In this document: positions 747 to 8,536 of the stretch, one piece after another
How the letters are laid out: each line of letters starts with the position of its first letter
Numbering within the stretch: the first letter of the stretch is position 1
Origin: Escherichia coli
GTDB lineage: Bacteria; Pseudomonadota; Gammaproteobacteria; Enterobacterales; Enterobacteriaceae
Direction: 5' to 3' (one strand)
NCBI RefSeq assembly: GCF_003334765.1
Contig: NZ_QOWT01000002.1
DNA: 64,000 bases
Translations under genes and position numbers: made by a program
The notes under the pieces: generated by a model
What the model saw: only the letters and a program-made list of their open reading frames with translations
Told to the model about the DNA's origin: nothing
Databases searched by the model: none

Positions 747-1799
747 TCAGGCGATAGTAATTTTGCTATCGAGATAAACGTCCTGCACGGCGTTAATCAG
801 TTTCACGCCGTCAGCCATCGATTTCTTGAACGCTTTACGTCCAAGAATCAGCCCCATTCCGCCAGCGCGTTTGTTGATAACCGCAGTACGCACTGCATCA
901 CTGAGGTCAGTTTCACCGCCCGCAGCACCGCCGGAGTTTATCAACCCAGCCCGGCCCATATAGCAGTTAGCTAACTGATAACGCACCAGATCAATCGGGT
1001 TTTCGCTGGTTAACTTGCTGTACACGCGATCGTCGGTATAACCGTAATTAATCGCTTTATAACCGCCGTTATTTTCCGCCATTTTCTGTTTGACGATGTC
1101 CGCGCCAATGGTCGCCGCCAGATGGTTCGCCTGACCAGTCAGGTCGGCGGAAACATGGTAATCAACGCCATCTTTCTTAAAGGCGGAGTTACGCAAATAG
1201 GCCCACAGCACTGTCACCATGCCCAGCTCGTGCGCACGTTCAAAAGCCGCAGAAATTTCTTCAATCTGGCGACGTGACTCTTCCGAGCCAAAATAGATAG
1301 TCGCACCAACCGCAACCGCGCCCATGTTGAACGCCTGCTCCACGCTGGCATACAGCGTTTGATCGTAGGTATTCGGGTAACTTAGCGTCTCGTTGTGATT
1401 AAGTTTGACGAGGAATGGAATGCGATGCGCATAACGCCGCGATACCGACGCCAGCACGCCGTAAGTTGACGCCACACAGTTACAGCCCGCTTCGATCGCC
1501 AGTTCAACAATGTTTTTCGGGTCAAAGTAGAGCGGGTTAGCAGCAAATGAAGCTCCGGCAGAGTGCTCAACGCCCTGGTCAACCGGCAGAATAGAAAGAT
1601 ATCCTGTGCCAGCCAGACGCCCGGTGTTGTACAACGTCTGCATATTACGTAACACCGCAGGCGGGCGATTATTGTCAATCATCACGCGGTCTACGTAGTC
1701 ATGTCCGGGGAGATAAAGCTGGTCAGAAGGAATAGTCATACAACGGTGCTGTAAAAGGTTGTCGGCGTCTTTGCCAAGCAACTGCGCAATATCTGTCAT
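747..1799 (-). CDS. fbaB: Fructose-bisphosphate aldolase class I
   Basis: ORF 747..1871; internal Met giving [16 protein letters not shown]... matches the remembered 350-aa FbaB N-terminus; ATG at 1797-1799 (minus). Confidence 0.9.
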
Positions 1800-2055
1800 T
1801 ACTATGCTCCCGTAAATTCCGATTGGATATCGGCTATGGATTTTCCTGGCCCGCCTTTTGCGGGCAATCATAATCCTGGTCGTTACGGGCGAGTTTTTCC
1901 ATCTTTTGGATGTTTTTTCAGCGTTTTCTGTTGGCTCGATTCATCAGAAAAAATGTTAGCGCGGTCAAGTTTTCACCGCAAAGGTATTTAAAAGGTATTA
2001 TTAAGTGGTATTGTCATCGCGTACCTTACATTACCTGTCATGAAGGAATTAAAAG

Positions 2056-3333
2056 ATGAAAACAACAGCAAAGCTGTCGTTCATGATGTTTGTTGAATGG
2101 TTTATCTGGGGCGCGTGGTTTGTGCCATTGTGGTTGTGGTTAAGTAAAAGCGGTTTTAGTGCCGGAGAAATTGGCTGGTCGTATGCCTGTACCGCCATTG
2201 CGGCGATCCTGTCGCCAATTCTGGTTGGCTCCATCACTGACCGCTTTTTCTCGGCGCAGAAAGTGCTGGCGGTATTGATGTTCGCAGGCGCGCTGCTGAT
2301 GTATTTCGCTGCGCAACAGACCACTTTTGCCGGGTTCTTCCCGTTACTGCTGGCCTACTCGCTAACCTATATGCCGACCATTGCGCTGACTAACAGCATC
2401 GCTTTTGCCAACGTGCCGGATGTTGAGCGTGATTTCCCGCGCATTCGTGTGATGGGCACTATCGGCTGGATTGCCTCCGGTCTGGCATGTGGTTTCTTGC
2501 CGCAAATACTGGGGTATGCCGATATCTCACCGACTAACATCCCGCTGCTGATTACCGCCGGAAGTTCTGCTCTGCTCGGTGTGTTTGCGTTTTTCCTGCC
2601 CGACACGCCACCAAAAAGCACCGGCAAAATGGATATTAAAGTCATGCTCGGCCTGGATGCGCTGATCCTGCTGCGCGATAAAAACTTCCTCGTCTTTTTC
2701 TTCTGTTCATTCCTGTTTGCGATGCCACTAGCGTTCTATTACATCTTTGCCAACGGTTATCTGACCGAAGTTGGCATGAAAAACGCCACCGGCTGGATGA
2801 CGCTCGGCCAGTTCTCTGAAATCTTCTTTATGCTGGCATTGCCGTTTTTCACTAAACGCTTTGGTATCAAAAAGGTATTATTGCTTGGTCTGGTCACCGC
2901 TGCGATCCGCTATGGCTTCTTTATTTACGGTAGTGCGGATGAATATTTCACCTACGCGTTACTGTTCCTCGGTATTTTGCTTCACGGCGTAAGTTACGAT
3001 TTTTACTACGTTACCGCTTACATCTATGTCGATAAAAAAGCCCCCGTGCATATGCGTACCGCTGCGCAGGGGCTGATCACGCTCTGCTGCCAGGGCTTCG
3101 GCAGTTTGCTCGGCTATCGTCTTGGCGGTGTGATGATGGAAAAGATGTTCGCTTATCAGGAACCGGTAAACGGACTGACTTTCAACTGGTCCGGGATGTG
3201 GACTTTCGGCGCGGTGATGATTGCCATTATCGCCGTGCTGTTCATGATTTTTTTCCGCGAATCCGACAACGAAATTACGGCTATCAAGGTCGATGATCGC
3301 GATATTGCGTTGACACAAGGGGAAGTTAAATGA
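2056..3333 (+). CDS. yegT: Nucleoside permease, NupG/XapB-family MFS transporter
   Basis: 425-aa ORF, highly hydrophobic multi-TM protein; position and sequence consistent with E. coli YegT. Confidence 0.88.
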   Translation: MKTTAKLSFMMFVEWFIWGAWFVPLWLWLSKSGFSAGEIGWSYACTAIAAILSPILVGSITDRFFSAQKVLAVLMFAGALLMYFAAQQTTFAGFFPLLLAYSLTYMPTIALTNSIAFANVPDVERDFPRIRVMGTIGWIASGLACGFLPQILGYADISPTNIPLLITAGSSALLGVFAFFLPDTPPKSTGKMDIKVMLGLDALILLRDKNFLVFFFCSFLFAMPLAFYYIFANGYLTEVGMKNATGWMTLGQFSEIFFMLALPFFTKRFGIKKVLLLGLVTAAIRYGFFIYGSADEYFTYALLFLGILLHGVSYDFYYVTAYIYVDKKAPVHMRTAAQGLITLCCQGFGSLLGYRLGGVMMEKMFAYQEPVNGLTFNWSGMWTFGAVMIAIIAVLFMIFFRESDNEITAIKVDDRDIALTQGEVK

Positions 3334-4334
3334 AAACAGAACGTATTCTCGGTGCTCTTTATGGGCAGGCGTTAGGGGATGCGATGGGGATGCCCTCCGA
3401 GCTTTGGCCACGCAGCCGCGTTAAAGCACACTTTGGCTGGATTGACCGTTTTCTTCCTGGACCAAAGGAGAATAACGCGGCCTGTTATTTTAACCGCGCC
3501 GAATTCACCGACGATACCTCGATGGCGCTGTGTCTGGCGGATGCGTTACTGGAACGTGAAGGCAAGATCGATCCGGATCTGATTGGGCGTAATATTCTCG
3601 ACTGGGCGCTGCGTTTCGACGCCTTTAACAAAAACGTACTAGGTCCGACCTCGAAGATTGCGCTTAACGCCATTCGCGACGGTAAACCCGTTGCTGAACT
3701 GGAAAACAACGGCGTGACCAACGGCGCAGCGATGCGCGTCTCGCCATTAGGTTGTTTGCTTCCGGCGCGTGATGTTGATTCCTTTATTGATGATGTAGCG
3801 CTGGCGTCCAGCCCGACCCATAAATCCGATCTGGCGGTTGCAGGCGCGGTAGTCATCGCATGGGCGATTTCTCGTGCCATTGACGGAGAAAGCTGGTCAG
3901 CGATTGTTGATTCCCTGCCTTCAATTGCGCGACATGCACAGCAAAAACGCATCACTACGTTCAGCGCCTCACTGGCGGCGCGGCTGGAGATTGCGCTGAA
4001 AATTGTGCGCAATGCCGACGGCACCGAATCCGCCAGCGAACAGCTTTACCAGGTCGTTGGCGCAGGTACCAGCACTATTGAGTCCGTTCCGTGCGCCATT
4101 GCGCTGGTTGAACTGGCACAAACCGACCCGAATCGCTGCGCCGTCCTGTGCGCTAACCTTGGCGGCGACACAGACACCATCGGTGCTATGGCGACGGCAA
4201 TTTGCGGCGCGTTGCATGGCGTTAACGCTATCGATCCTGCGTTAAAGGCGGAACTGGATGCGGTAAATCAGCTTGATTTCAACCGCTATGCCACAGCGCT
4301 GGCGAAATATCGTCAACAACGGGAGGCGGTATGA
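3330..4334 (+). CDS. yegU: ADP-ribosylglycohydrolase-family protein
   Basis: 334-aa ORF; ATGA start/stop overlap with yegT; N-terminal GQALGDAMGMP motif typical of ADP-ribosylglycohydrolases. Confidence 0.85.
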   Translation: MKTERILGALYGQALGDAMGMPSELWPRSRVKAHFGWIDRFLPGPKENNAACYFNRAEFTDDTSMALCLADALLEREGKIDPDLIGRNILDWALRFDAFNKNVLGPTSKIALNAIRDGKPVAELENNGVTNGAAMRVSPLGCLLPARDVDSFIDDVALASSPTHKSDLAVAGAVVIAWAISRAIDGESWSAIVDSLPSIARHAQQKRITTFSASLAARLEIALKIVRNADGTESASEQLYQVVGAGTSTIESVPCAIALVELAQTDPNRCAVLCANLGGDTDTIGAMATAICGALHGVNAIDPALKAELDAVNQLDFNRYATALAKYRQQREAV

Positions 4335-5296
4335 GCGGCGCTCGATTACACACGCTGCTGCCTGAATTAACCACGCGTCAGTCGGTGATGGTCGTCGGCG
4401 CGGCGGTCATTGACGTGATCGCCGACGCTTATGCCCTCCCCTGGCGTGGGTGCGATATCGAACTGAAACAGCAGAGCGTTAACGTTGGCGGCTGCGCACT
4501 GAATATTGCCGTGGCGTTAAAGCGCCTCGGCATCGAAGCGGGTAATGCCTTGCCGCTCGGTCAGGGCGTGTGGGCGGAGATTATTCGCAACCGGATGGCA
4601 AAAGAGGGCTTAATCAGCCTGATCGATAACGCCGAAGGTGATAACGGCTGGTGTCTGGCGCTGGTTGAGCCGGATGGCGAACGCACTTTTATGTCATTCA
4701 GCGGTGTTGAAAATCAGTGGAATCGCCAGTGGCTGGCGCGATTAACCGTTGCGCCTGGCAGCCTGCTCTATTTTTCCGGTTATCAACTGGCCTCGCCCTG
4801 CGGCGAATTGTTAGTGGAATGGCTGGAAGAGCTGCAAGACGTGACGCCGTTTATCGATTTTGGCCCACGTATTGGCGATATCCCGGATGCATTACTGGCG
4901 CGGATCATGGCCTGTCGACCTTTAGTGTCGCTCAATCGTCAAGAGGCTGAGATTGCCGCCGAACGTTTTGCTTTATCCGCAGAGATAACAACACTTGGCA
5001 AGCAATGGCAGGAGAAATTTGCCGCGCCGTTGATCGTTCGTCTCGATAAAGAAGGCGCATGGTATTTCAGCAACGACGCTTCTGGCTGCATTCCGGCATT
5101 TCCAACGCAAGTTGTCGACACCATTGGGGCGGGCGACAGTCATGCCGGTGGCGTACTTGCCGGGCTGGCCTCTGGTCTGCCACTGGCGGATGCCGTATTA
5201 CTGGGCAATGCAGTGGCGTCGTGGGTTGTCGGGCATCGGGGCGGTGATTGTGCGCCAACGCGCGAGGAACTACTCCTCGCACACAAAAACGTATAG
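4331..5296 (+). CDS. yegV: PfkB-family sugar/nucleoside kinase
   Basis: 321-aa ORF overlapping the yegU stop by 4 nt; C-terminal DTIGAGDSHAGG motif typical of the ribokinase/PfkB family. Confidence 0.85.
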   Translation: MSGARLHTLLPELTTRQSVMVVGAAVIDVIADAYALPWRGCDIELKQQSVNVGGCALNIAVALKRLGIEAGNALPLGQGVWAEIIRNRMAKEGLISLIDNAEGDNGWCLALVEPDGERTFMSFSGVENQWNRQWLARLTVAPGSLLYFSGYQLASPCGELLVEWLEELQDVTPFIDFGPRIGDIPDALLARIMACRPLVSLNRQEAEIAAERFALSAEITTLGKQWQEKFAAPLIVRLDKEGAWYFSNDASGCIPAFPTQVVDTIGAGDSHAGGVLAGLASGLPLADAVLLGNAVASWVVGHRGGDCAPTREELLLAHKNV

Positions 5297-6016
5297 ATCG
5301 CTGCGACAGTGGCTAATGCTGTACTCAATAGGCCGTTGCTGTTGGTCAAGCGCCACTTGCTTGATCACCAGCACCGGTATTTTGCTATCTAACTGAATAT
5401 GTGACTGAAACTCGGCATCCGGCATCCGGGCGCTAACGCGGGAACGCGTACGTTGTGGGTAAATGTGCTGGCTGCGGAAATAGTCATAAAGTGAAATCCC
5501 GATGGCATCAACATCATGAATTAAATGCGCCGGAACCCACGATTCCTCAATCGATACCGCATCTTCATCGACATAGCGAATACGCTTAAGCAAAAAGACA
5601 TCACTTCCTGCTTCGACCGCCAGCTGCTGCGCGACTTCTTCGGGACATTTCACGACACGCTTGTTAACCCATAGCGTATCGGGCTTTTTCCCGCGCAATA
5701 CCACCTGCTGAGAAAAACCTCGCGCTTCTTTCAACGAGTATTCGAAGATGTTGTTGATCTGCGTGCCGTAACCGCGCGAACGCGTCACCACACCCTCTTC
5801 TTCCAGCGCCTGCATCGCCTTGCGCACCGTAATGCGCGAAACGCCGGTTAACTGACTTAAATCACGCTCACCGGGCAAAATATTGCCATGCTCCAGCACC
5901 CCGCTGCGCACGGCATTTTTTACCGTTTCGGCAAACTTAATATAAAGCGGCGTGTTATCCGCCGCTAAAATACGCTCGTTCAGTTGGGCAATCAGCTGGG
6001 TATGCGCTTGTTCCAT
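5270..6016 (-). CDS. yegW: GntR/HutC-family transcriptional regulator
   Basis: 248-aa ORF; N-terminal winged-helix segment (LPGERDLSQLTGVSRITVRKAMQALEEEGVV) plus UTRA-like C-terminus. Confidence 0.88.
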   Translation of the reverse strand: MEQAHTQLIAQLNERILAADNTPLYIKFAETVKNAVRSGVLEHGNILPGERDLSQLTGVSRITVRKAMQALEEEGVVTRSRGYGTQINNIFEYSLKEARGFSQQVVLRGKKPDTLWVNKRVVKCPEEVAQQLAVEAGSDVFLLKRIRYVDEDAVSIEESWVPAHLIHDVDAIGISLYDYFRSQHIYPQRTRSRVSARMPDAEFQSHIQLDSKIPVLVIKQVALDQQQRPIEYSISHCRSDLYVFVCEE

Positions 6017-6067: not shown

Positions 6068-6886
6068 TTAAGGCGTTTCTTTAATCCCATCAACGAATGC
6101 CTGCAACTCCTCCACCGTGCCATTAAATACATTAAAATCCACCGGACCATTGATGCCATCTACCTGTCCACGGTCGGAATGCTGCCAGAAGCGCCAGGCC
6201 ATTCCGTCATTGTCCGGACGACGTTGATAGTAGTGAGCCACCCACCACGGATATTCATTGAAATAGCCCGCCAGATTGGTGTGATAAAAAACGGCTCCTG
6301 AGTAAATAATCGGCTTTTTCCCCGTACTTTTTTCGACCATTTTTAGCCACTGACTTACCCGCTTGCGTAATTCTTTTGCCGATAATTTTCCCCGTTCTTC
6401 TACGTCCAGCACGGCAGGGAAATCGCCTTGTGAGAAATCCACCGTTTGCAGAAATAATCTCGCCTGAACTGAAGCGGATACCGACGGGGAGAAATAATGA
6501 TACGCCCCACGCAGCAGGCCATTTTCGCGGCTTAGTTGCCAGTTACGCGAAAAATAGGGGTCCACCAGCTTTTCGCCTTCCGTCGCCTTAATAAAAGCAA
6601 ACTGTAAGCGGATACCGTTGTCGCGCATTTTTGCCACCCGCTGCCAGTCGATCCGCTCCTGCCAGCGCGAAACATCTATTCCGTGAATGGTGTAACTGGC
6701 AGGAATGCGAATAGCGAAAGATTTAACCGGGCGATAACCGTAGAAGTGGATGTAGTCTGTAATCTGAACTGCTGTCGAATAGAAAAAATTCACCGTCTGA
6801 CGCGGATAAATTGCAACGATGGAAATTAGCCCAAGAGCGCATAATAGAGAGGTGAGTTTTTTTCGACTGGTAATTCTTAGCTGCAT
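6068..6886 (-). CDS. yegX: Glycoside hydrolase family 25 (lysozyme-like muramidase), N-terminal signal/anchor
   Basis: ORF 6068..6895; start set at internal Met (MQLRITSRKK...); GH25-like YHGIDVSRWQ and DYIHFYGY motifs. Confidence 0.8.
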   Translation of the reverse strand: MQLRITSRKKLTSLLCALGLISIVAIYPRQTVNFFYSTAVQITDYIHFYGYRPVKSFAIRIPASYTIHGIDVSRWQERIDWQRVAKMRDNGIRLQFAFIKATEGEKLVDPYFSRNWQLSRENGLLRGAYHYFSPSVSASVQARLFLQTVDFSQGDFPAVLDVEERGKLSAKELRKRVSQWLKMVEKSTGKKPIIYSGAVFYHTNLAGYFNEYPWWVAHYYQRRPDNDGMAWRFWQHSDRGQVDGINGPVDFNVFNGTVEELQAFVDGIKETP

Positions 6887-6950
6887 TGGTTTCATCCCTG
6901 AATGTCAGTGCCAAAGGCTGACAATAACCAAAGCAGCTATAGTACGGTGC

Positions 6951-7751
6951 TCACCACCAGGCGTGGAAGTGGTGAACCGGACCAATACCGTGACCAACTT
7001 CCAGCGTGTCGGCCTGGGCTAACGCCGATGAAAGCCAGCTTTTTGCCTCCTGTACGGTGTCAGCCCAGTTTGTATGGCGCGGGCGTAGTGCAGCCAACGC
7101 CGCAGAGAGTGTACAACCAGTGCCGTGGGTGTTTTTGGTCATAATGCGCGGTGCGGTAAACCGTTGTTCACCCTCGCGGGTAAACAGCCAGTCCGGGCTT
7201 TGCTCATCATCCAGATGACCACCTTTCATTAGCACTGCGCCACAGCCCATCGCCAACAGCGATCGCCCTTGTTCCAGCATTTCCTGTTCGGTGCGCGCGT
7301 GTGGCGCGTCGAGCAAGGCGGCAGCTTCGGGCAAGTTTGGCGTTATTAATGAAACCTGTGGCAATAATCGACTGCGCAGCGTAGCAACCGCCGAAGGTGA
7401 AAGCAGCGGGTCGCCGCTTTTTGCCAGCATAACGGTGTCGAGTACCACGTTTTGGATCTGATAACGTTGCAACCGTTCTGCCACCGCTTCAACAATATCG
7501 GTTTCCGCCAGCATACCGATTTTAGTGGTATCGATTCGCACATCGCTGAACACCGAATCGAGCTGGGCGGCGACAAAATCAGGCTCAATGCGATACACCG
7601 ACTGTACGCCACGGGTATTTTGCGCCACCAGTGCAGTAATAACTGAGCAACCATAAGCGCCAAGTGCCGAGAAGGTTTTAAGATCGGCCTGAATCCCCGC
7701 ACCACCACTCGGATCAGTACCGGCAATCGTCAGAGCGTTAATTCGTTTCAT
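6951..7751 (-). CDS. thiD: Hydroxymethylpyrimidine/phosphomethylpyrimidine kinase
   Basis: 266-aa ORF; [27 protein letters not shown]... recognised as ThiD; overlaps the thiM stop by 4 nt. Confidence 0.92.
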
Positions 7752-8536
7752 GCCTGCACCTCCTGCGTCAATTGCCAGAGCGCATCAAGGAAATGTGGAA
7801 CAAAACTGCCTGGTCCCTCGCTTCTGGCGACTGCGCGTTCTCCGGCTTGTTTCATCCAGTGACAGGCAGATGCGACATTTTCCAGCGTATCGCCTGGTAA
7901 CGCACAGCAGGCAGCGACAACCGCCGATAATGCACAGCCAGTTCCTACCACTTTGGTCATTAACGGATCACCACCGTGAATACCAATGATACGATGTCCA
8001 TCGGTAACATAATCCATCTCGCCAGTGACCACGACGATTGCGCCAGTTTCCCGTGCCAGTGTTTGTGCAGCGGGTATCGCGTTAGCTGCGGCGTCAGTGG
8101 TATCCACTCCCCGTCCGCCATTAGCAATGCCAGCTAATGCCATGATTTCCGAAGCATTACCACGTATCGCTGCCGGTTTAAAAGATAAAAGTTCATGACA
8201 AAAATGGCGGCGATAATCGAGCGCACCCACCGCTACTGGATCAAGCGTCCAGGGTGTTTGAGAGCTTTTTGCTTGCTCAACGGCAGCACGCATCGCCTGA
8301 GCGCGTGGCTGCGTCAGTGTGCCAACGTTAATCAACAAGGCACTGGCGATAGCCGCAAACTGACTGGCCTCTTCGGTTTCGATAACCATCGCTGGCGATG
8401 CACCGAGCGCCAGCAAGGTATTGGCGGTAAAGGTTTGCACCACATCATTGGTCATGCAGTGCACAAGAGGGGAATGTTGGTGAAAAAGGTGTAACGCGTG
8501 CGCAGATTGCGCTGAACCCAGCAGGTCGACTTGCAT
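7748..8536 (-). CDS. thiM: Hydroxyethylthiazole kinase
   Basis: 262-aa ORF ([33 protein letters not shown]...) recognised as ThiM; first gene of thiMD. Confidence 0.92.

Follow-up and report, generated by a model that had tools for sequence, protein, structure and literature searches.

A conserved pairing of an ARH-fold hydrolase with a PfkB-family kinase points to a candidate route for a non-canonical riboside in the Escherichia coli yegTUV operon

Introduction

Pseudouridine catabolism by PsuT/PsuK/PsuG (yeiM-yeiC-yeiN) in Escherichia coli is a natural starting point for considering the yegTUV operon and its convergent regulator gene yegW, which we have analysed in a 64,000-nucleotide stretch of E. 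coli DNA (contig NZ_QOWT01000002.1; hereafter the window, to which all gene positions in E. coli refer). In the pseudouridine route a nucleoside transporter is followed by a PfkB-family kinase that yields the 5'-phosphate, and by a metal-dependent glycosidase that releases ribose-5-phosphate and the base. The logic that we propose for yegTUV is alike, with a transporter, a PfkB kinase and a glycosidase, but the components are not the same. YegU has the ADP-ribosylglycohydrolase (ARH) fold (PF03747) in place of the PsuG/IndA fold; YegV scores 19.6 bits with the PsuK model NF007355, whose cut-off is 540, and so is no pseudouridine kinase; and the transporter, unlike PsuT, is of the NHS type.

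A second system with a kinase, a hydrolase and a transporter is rus of Bacteroides, which harvests ribose from diverse ribosides (bioRxiv 10.1101/574913). The rus loci are of the SusC/D-based, polysaccharide-utilisation type, are induced by ribose and contain true ribokinases, whereas yegTUV packs its MFS transporter, kinase and hydrolase genes into one compact operon that is controlled by a GntR repressor. The hydrolase family itself is known from a different setting, since its characterised members act on ADP-ribosylated macromolecules, poly(ADP-ribose) or O-acetyl-ADP-ribose (PMC7050489).

The locus, its operon structure and its repressor have already been published. What we add here is evidence that YegU and YegV are a conserved and sometimes fused pair of enzymes, together with a specific reaction scheme for the operon and a candidate operator. 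We propose that yegTUV is a substrate-inducible operon for a non-canonical ribofuranoside, "ribosyl-X", and we lean slightly towards this scheme being right as a whole.

Results

The YegU-YegV pair is conserved and fused while its transporter changes

A neighbourhood scan with a YegU alignment as query, restricted to one genome per species, returned 79 loci, and 61 of these also encode a YegV homologue no more than 6 kb away from the YegU homologue. The pair is found in Enterobacterales, Vibrio, Aeromonas, Chromobacterium, Parasutterella, Clostridia and Bacilli, and further in Lactobacillales, Dialister (Negativicutes), Actinobacteria and Chloroflexi; a gene for a YegW-like GntR/UTRA regulator is present in 50 of the 79 loci. 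YegU-YegV pairs always adjoin some small-molecule transporter, usually together with a GntR/UTRA regulator, and it is the kind of transporter that changes. A YegT-type NHS transporter stands beside the pair in 28 loci, an NCS1-family permease in 20 (usually between the two enzyme genes), and a PnuC-family carrier (TIGR01528, 150 bits against a cut-off of 42) in 13, there directly after the kinase.

The two enzymes also occur as single polypeptides. Searching 1.84 billion representative proteins with YegU gave 234 relatives at E≤1e-30, among which four have the ARH domain first and a YegV-like kinase second (P0203, P0217, P0230 and P0252) and three have the reverse arrangement, with PfkB first (P0189, P0202 and P0215, the last being PF00294+PF03747 with E=3e-14). 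Precomputed Pfam hits confirm both orders. In P0230 (PF03747+PF00294) the C-terminal half matches YegV over its full length, with 28% identity (E=9e-27). The genes for the fusion proteins adjoin an ABC sugar-type system or an ECF transporter, plus a GntR/UTRA regulator. Because the carrier has been swapped non-orthologously around a constant pair, and because fusions exist in both orders, we believe there is strong comparative evidence that YegU and YegV would catalyse linked steps on an imported small molecule.

Two of these fusion loci have further features of their own. On the contig of P0230 the ABC transporter genes are followed by another, stand-alone ARH-family gene (L080, 7511-8500). 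Downstream of P0215 (L081, 9589-12875) lie genes for a phosphopentomutase-like metalloenzyme, an NCS1 permease and a DeoC-family aldolase, neighbours that are consistent with pentose-phosphate processing near the module.

The kinase is absent from two smaller sets of loci. In three of them (L070, L071 and L077; Lachnospiraceae and Solobacterium) a YegU homologue of 35-36% identity comes straight after genes for a LicT antiterminator and for the IIABC protein of a beta-glucoside PTS, a phosphorylating transporter (for example L070, 6051-9966), and no other hydrolase is conserved at that position; this arrangement suggests that these homologues are ARH-fold phospho-glycoside hydrolases. In the other set (L025, L027, L028 and L037; Edwardsiella and Serratia) a YegU homologue of 62-65% identity is kept with a YegW-like regulator, both YegT and YegV being absent, and in the three full-length loci the yegU-yegW pair sits between a phoP/phoQ-like two-component system and purB-hflD.

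YegU is predicted to be an active ARH-fold glycohydrolase

The yegU gene (3330-4334, plus strand) encodes a protein of 334 amino acids, predicted to be a metal-dependent glycohydrolase, in which residues 8-302 are covered by a full-length match to PF03747 (E=2.5e-66). Its AlphaFold2 model has a predicted local distance difference test (pLDDT) score of 97.1, and in Foldseek comparisons this model aligned with a template modelling (TM) score of 0.81 to MJ1187 (1t5j), 0.75-0.78 to ARH3 and about 0.75 to DraG. No structure of YegU itself has been solved, and its nearest solved relative is the uncharacterised MJ1187, followed by ARH3 and DraG. In a HMMER alignment with human ARH3, E24 of YegU corresponds to the Glu-flap residue E41, and T60-D61-D62-T63 and D280-T281-D282-T283 correspond to the metal ligands T76/D77/D78 and D314/D316/T317. 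Across 30 diverse homologues D61 and D282 do not vary. Since the Glu flap and the metal-ligand motifs are present and the ARH fold is confidently predicted, YegU looks catalytically competent. We found no biochemical assignment in the literature for a characterised homologue of YegU or YegV.

YegU thus shares with the ARH family (ARH3, ARH1, DraG, Tri1 and MJ1187) the fold, at TM scores of 0.75-0.81, the TDDT/GGDTDT metal motifs and the Glu flap. Unlike the characterised members, YegU is part of a clade that goes with kinases and transporters, falls far under the equivalog cut-offs (79.5 bits against 337 for DraG and 69 against 490 for Tri1) and is without the ARH3 adenine clamp, whose residues F143 and Y149 align with N126 and V129 in YegU. 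The absence of the clamp speaks mildly against ADP-ribose itself as the substrate of YegU, but the point carries little weight and does not settle the matter, as ARH classes vary greatly in how they coordinate adenosine (review PMC7050489).

These differences bear on whether YegU might reverse genuine ADP-ribosylation, stripping ADP-ribose from a protein, a nucleic acid or a small molecule as DraG, ARH1, ARH3 or Tri1 do, with the rest of the module recycling the products. The complete ARH fold with its intact catalytic site would allow such a role, and the in vitro effector of YegW is an ADP-sugar. The low DraG and Tri1 scores argue against it, as do the neighbourhood, in which no ADP-ribosyltransferase partner was found, and, weakly, the missing ARH3 adenine-stacking residues, and the obligatory transporters, the fusion to a sugar kinase and the catabolic-type HutC repressor all point to the metabolism of an imported compound. 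We consider this role very unlikely. An earlier note on this DNA had spoken of an ADP-ribose-related salvage module, but we found nothing specific that favours free ADP-ribose as substrate.

What the family does suggest is the kind of bond that would be cut. In every known ARH substrate the 5'' carbon of the ribose is phosphoesterified and cleavage occurs at C1'', and ARH1 and ARH3 favour alpha-1'' linkages (review PMC7050489).

Among the YegU relatives, P0161 (692 amino acids) carries two ARH domains in tandem on one polypeptide. In the second copy the metal motifs read VTDAFS and GDETSA in place of TDDT and GGDTDT, and this domain may be degenerate or regulatory.

YegV belongs to a kinase clade distinct from ribokinase

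The product of yegV (4331-5296, plus strand; 321 amino acids) matches the PfkB family (PF00294, E=9.6e-57) and contains both the GG switch, G53-G54, and the catalytic motif D263-T-I-G-A-G-D269. Ribokinase is its best named match, but at 82.1 bits against a cut-off of 299.65 (TIGR02152) and 60.6 against 341 (NF008353), and YegV lies under every curated NCBIfam equivalog cut-off. To define the clade we took 58 YegV homologues from beside YegU homologues and compared them with ribokinase at the residues that reportedly contact ribose in the 1998 structure of Sigrell and colleagues. The equivalents of ribokinase D16, G41-G42, N46 and D255 (D28, G53-G54, N58 and D269 in YegV) are kept in at least 57 of the 58. 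The N14 position is always hydrophobic (V26 in YegV), the K43 position is a cysteine in 49 of the 58 (C55 in YegV), and the E143 position varies across the clade (A154 in YegV). R118 and H271 are near-invariant and specific to the clade, and C55 is clade-specific as well. Because the first set of residues is conserved while N14 and K43 are replaced, the pattern indicates that YegV keeps the residues for ribofuranose diol binding and phosphoryl transfer but is not a ribokinase.

This signature bears directly on hydrolase-first ribose scavenging, in which YegU would free ribose and an aglycone and YegV would serve as a second ribokinase, as in Bacteroides rus. Such a route is in keeping with the best named match of YegV, but the 82 bits of YegV lie far under the ribokinase cut-off, and the ribose contacts N14 and K43 are replaced throughout a clade that has invariant residues of its own. 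Moreover, E. coli already has RbsK. Bacteroidetes ribose loci do pair ribokinases with ADP-ribosylglycohydrolases or nucleoside hydrolases (bioRxiv 10.1101/574913), which lends the route a precedent. PnuC-type carriers, however, work by facilitated diffusion and depend on a kinase that traps the transported molecule itself (PMC5749112), and known ARH substrates are 5''-phosphoesters (PMC7050489), both of which speak against the hydrolase acting first. Overall, we regard hydrolase-first scavenging as improbable. YegV itself is still labelled an uncharacterized sugar kinase in UniProt, a label cited by a 2025 preprint on the E. coli "unknome".

YegT is a nucleoside permease homologue with altered ligand contacts

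The yegT gene (2056-3333, plus strand; 425 amino acids) encodes an NHS-family MFS H+ symporter and NupG paralogue, which scores 654.9 bits against the nucleoside permease model TIGR00889 and so clears its cut-off of 446.1. Its structure has been solved at 3.1 Å (PDB 8ZOJ; Xiao et al. 2025, PMC11979927); NupG is the only other solved relative (E=3.5e-51, 27% identity). YegT has in common with the nucleoside:H+ symporters NupG and XapB the fold of 12 transmembrane helices (TM) and the TM10 GxxxD protonation site, which we read in the sequence as G311-V-S-Y-D315 and whose D315 is described as protonated in the 8ZOJ structure (PMC11979927). It differs in its low identity to NupG, in the uridine-contacting residues of NupG, which are not kept, and in isothermal titration calorimetry (ITC), which gave no significant binding of uridine, adenosine, cytidine or guanosine (PMC11979927). 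On this published evidence the four canonical nucleosides appear not to be ligands of YegT.

Within yegT, synonymous sites are conserved most strongly over the first ~13 codons (2056-2095), at about 0.84 compared with a mean of 0.54 for the whole gene in 14 orthologues; translation initiation and an extension of the operator are possible causes. A leader RNA or attenuator upstream of yegT was also considered and rejected, as the folding of 2010-2100 gave z=-0.29 against shuffles; a stable RNA structure is therefore not what conserves these first codons.

YegW/GgaR and a candidate operator

The regulator gene yegW (5270-6016, minus strand; 248 amino acids) encodes an N-terminal GntR domain (PF00392, 7.3e-16) and a C-terminal UTRA domain (PF07702, 1e-35), which place it in the HutC subfamily. 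It was renamed GgaR in 2024 by Saito et al. (PMC10819704), who combined chromatin immunoprecipitation on microarrays (ChIP-chip), electrophoretic mobility shift assays (EMSA), Northern blotting and reverse-transcription quantitative PCR (RT-qPCR) to establish repression of yegTUV. In that work ChIP-chip gave one YegW peak genome-wide, as expected of a single-target regulator, and this peak comprises two sites confirmed by EMSA, of which the strong one lies in the fbaB/yegT spacer and the weaker within the yegT frame (+571 to +869). The operon is transcribed as one 3.3 kb mRNA that is undetectable in the wild type and rises about 30-fold upon yegW deletion, while fbaB expression is unaffected (PMC10819704).

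No recognition sequence for YegW is reported in PMC10819704, and here we offer a candidate. Upstream of yegT, at 1983-2025 on the plus strand, GGTAT occurs at 1983, 1994 and 2007, with an inverted GTACC at 2021; this interval lies within the EMSA-positive probe-2 of PMC10819704, which covers 190 bp upstream of yegT. A repeat search found that 38 nt of it (1983-2020) recur as a direct repeat at 2863-2900, plus strand, within yegT, with 79% identity, and the two copies have in common the 13-mer AAAAGGTATTATT, which occurs exactly twice in the 64 kb window. The intragenic copy falls within the EMSA-positive probe-5 (+571 to +869, window 2626-2924) and is thus a candidate for the weaker second site. 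Of 27 yegT loci compared across Enterobacterales and Vibrio, whose spacers are otherwise divergent, 25 have GGTAT-N6-GGTAT in the 200 nt preceding the gene, against 0 of 200 shuffles; in the Vibrio operators the third half-site is inverted (GGTAT...ATACC). The tandem GGTAT repeats are a candidate YegW operator that matches both published binding regions. They overlap a promoter-like site predicted by a consensus scan (TTCACC-18 nt-TATTAT, 1972-2001, plus strand), which is consistent with repression by promoter occlusion.

Two extensions of this operator model were rejected. Selection on the intragenic copy is not apparent, since 2863-2900 shows no extra synonymous constraint (it ranks 343 of 412 windows); the copy looks like a by-product of coding for G-I-K-K-V-L-L that happens to bind weakly, which agrees with its lower affinity and points to an incidental match. 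The GGTAT operator is also absent from the Firmicutes loci, where other palindromes are found, such as ACTTATAC...GTATGAGT.

YegW resembles single-target HutC-type regulators such as NagR/DasR, TreR, PhnF and HutC in combining a GntR winged helix with a UTRA effector domain, in adjoining its sole target operon and in being released by a small phosphorylated or nucleotide-like ligand. It departs from them in its candidate operator, made of direct GGTATs about 11 bp apart plus an inverted copy where the others have a single short palindrome, and in its reported effector, ADP-glucose.

Saito et al. proposed an ADP-glucose/glycogen module, in which YegW senses ADP-glucose and thereby tunes glycogen accumulation, and in which YegT would take up ADP-glucose, YegU hydrolyse the ADP-sugar and YegV phosphorylate the released sugar. 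At 10-100 µM, ADP-glucose frees YegW from the fbaB/yegT spacer DNA in EMSA while glucose and ADP do not, and deletion of yegW leads to 2-3 times more glycogen and to poor growth on minimal glucose (PMC10819704). Before that, the operon had been tied to glycogen only by a yegV deletion that appears among the glycogen-deficient mutants tabulated for ADP-glucose medium (PMC6195507). This support is direct but narrow, as the effector panel consisted of three compounds (ADP-glucose, glucose and ADP), the induction seen in vivo was about 3-fold against the 30-fold derepression of the deletion mutant (PMC10819704), and the glycogen effect of the yegW mutation may be indirect. It also leaves the enzyme chemistry and the cross-phylum context unexplained: C1 of the sugar in ADP-glucose is held in a phosphate ester and not in the C1'' glycosidic bond cut by ARH enzymes (PMC7050489), and the YegU-YegV pair occurs as well with PnuC, NCS1 and ECF carriers, which are not known importers of nucleotide sugars. 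As the primary function of the operon we therefore consider this module unlikely, and ADP-glucose may instead mimic a true, nucleotide-like inducer of YegW.

Organization of the locus

The reading frames just described form a tightly packed unit. An ATGA joins the yegT stop to the yegU start at 3330-3333 and another joins the yegU stop to the yegV start at 4331-4334, both read on the plus strand and preceded by Shine-Dalgarno-like purine runs (GGGGAAG before the overlap at 3330 and GGGAGG before that at 4331). The first is kept in Enterobacteriaceae loci, and the yegT-yegU overlap and the gene order persist through Enterobacterales and Vibrio. The open reading frame list and the raw sequence place all four genes and both overlaps exactly, to the base, where the earlier note had put them. 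Its further claim of translational coupling fared in part: the overlaps are there, and the coupling itself is deduced from them. The same note had named a NupG-like nucleoside permease, an ARH-family enzyme, a ribokinase-like PfkB kinase and a convergent GntR/HutC regulator, all of which agree with the TIGR00889 and NupG matches of YegT, the PF03747 match of YegU, the PF00294 match of YegV (with ribokinase as the best named match, yet far under its cut-off) and the GntR and UTRA domains encoded on the minus strand by yegW. Its broader suggestion, the uptake and processing of a ribosylated or nucleoside-like substrate, is upheld as gene logic by the comparative data, and its description of that substrate as still undefined accords with the negative ITC of YegT (PMC11979927) and with the current label of YegV.

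The locus belongs to the E. coli core, since its 4.5 kb segment, annotated yegT, yegU, yegV, yegW and yegX, was matched by megablast in 5425 of 5426 complete E. coli genomes, and the window is accordingly a piece of E. coli chromosome. Given this distribution and the gene order kept beyond E. coli, the arrangement cannot be put down to chance. The convergent frames of yegV and yegW overlap by 27 nt (5270-5296, from the open reading frame coordinates). An intrinsic terminator separating the two genes was sought and rejected, as a scan of the interval found no terminator-like site. Taken with the overlap, this raises the possibility that derepressed yegTUV transcription, antisense to yegW, may interfere with yegW expression and might act as a feed-forward switch. 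The pair is listed, though not studied, among the overlapping convergent transcripts of an excludon survey (PMC12288877).

On one side the locus is flanked by fbaB (747-1871, minus strand) and on the other by yegX, thiD and thiM. YegX is GH25 lysozyme-like and has an N-terminal segment that is hydrophobic, and the thiD and thiM frames share 4 nt (7748-7751). We saw no functional tie of these three genes (6068-8536) to yegTUV.

Discussion

Overall, we believe that an inducible riboside pathway is an attractive explanation for yegTUV, one that accounts for the constancy of the enzyme pair and for the variety of its carriers. Consider, for example, a cell supplied with ribosyl-X. YegT would import the compound by proton symport, whereupon YegV would phosphorylate the ribose 5-OH with ATP, giving 5-phosphoribosyl-X and also trapping it in the cell. 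The two-metal ARH site of YegU would then hydrolyse the C1 glycosidic bond of 5-phosphoribosyl-X to ribose-5-phosphate and the aglycone X, with the ribose-5-phosphate entering the pentose phosphate pathway. When substrate is lacking, YegW/GgaR dimers on the tandem GGTAT repeats, which overlap the predicted -10 region, would block transcription; a nucleotide-sugar-like ligand would release them, and the physiological inducer may be the phosphorylated intermediate.

In this scheme we infer the ribose nature of the substrate, the order of kinase before hydrolase and the products. The kinase is favoured as the first enzyme because the YegV clade keeps the ribose diol-binding residues yet is no ribokinase, because PnuC-type carriers need a kinase acting on the transported molecule, because ARH substrates carry a phosphoester on the 5'' carbon, and because the kinase-less YegU homologues of Lachnospiraceae and Solobacterium follow a phosphorylating beta-glucoside PTS. 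That the substrate should be non-canonical is suggested by the loss of the NupG base contacts in YegT and by its negative ITC with U, A, C and G.

At the same time, several points weigh against the scheme. The activities of YegT, YegU and YegV and the transported substrate are predictions from sequence comparison, and the reaction order is drawn by analogy. The ADP-glucose ligand and the glycogen phenotype, the only ones with experimental support, do not follow from it. Serratia and Edwardsiella retain YegU and YegW in loci that have neither YegT nor YegV, so YegU may act independently of the kinase. Finally, the PTS-linked homologues suggest hexose conjugates as substrates of some ARH-fold enzymes, which makes ribose specificity uncertain.

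As to the aglycone, a pyridine riboside derived from NAD and an alpha-linked riboside are our leading guesses, each of low probability. The alpha-riboside, for instance the nucleoside of a cobamide lower ligand, comes to mind because ARH1 and ARH3 prefer alpha linkages. The pyridine riboside is weakly hinted at by the PnuC association and by the nadC loci of Leuconostoc and Blautia. In Leuconostoc holzapfelii (L054, 6160-12258) genes for an NrtR-like regulator (48 bits, a weak match) and an aromatic-acid-type MFS transporter are followed by nadC, yegU, an NCS1 permease gene and yegV, and in Blautia (L072, 3722-9990) a YegU homologue of 35% identity ends a nadA-nadB-nadC cluster. A strong NAD link was rejected, as nadC stands beside a YegU homologue in only 2 of the 79 loci and other NAD genes do not recur; like the PnuC association, it is kept as a lead of low probability.

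Regardless of the particular aglycone, the same observations allow a more general proposal, which we hold tentatively and rate a little below an even chance: that the YegU clade is a multi-phylum group of ARH-fold 5-phosphoriboside hydrolases acting after a PfkB riboside kinase and unrelated to protein ADP-ribosylation. If this is true, YegU and YegV would constitute a second "phosphorylate, then cleave" nucleoside route beside PsuK/PsuG, and the extra glycogen of the yegW mutant would arise secondarily, through the ribose-5-phosphate or nucleotide-sugar pools. An orphan NMN-glycohydrolase activity has been reported in E. coli, and a substrate in the form of an NAD-derived pyridine riboside might give this activity its gene.

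The genes yegT, yegU and yegV belong to those E. coli core genes that still await a substrate assignment, and many gut Firmicutes, vibrios, lactobacilli and actinomycetes have the YegU-YegV pair. Concrete starting points for identifying the substrate by experiment are offered by the operator motif, by the fusion proteins and by the exchange of transporters. Knowing it would show whether GgaR and ADP-glucose are tied to glycogen directly or secondarily, and would correct the "ADP-ribosylglycohydrolase" and "sugar kinase" labels now copied across many genomes. An ARH clade that has been annotated by analogy with protein de-ADP-ribosylases would thereby gain a metabolic role, and an ARH-fold phosphoriboside hydrolase, if that is what YegU proves to be, would be a modestly surprising variant of nucleoside catabolism.

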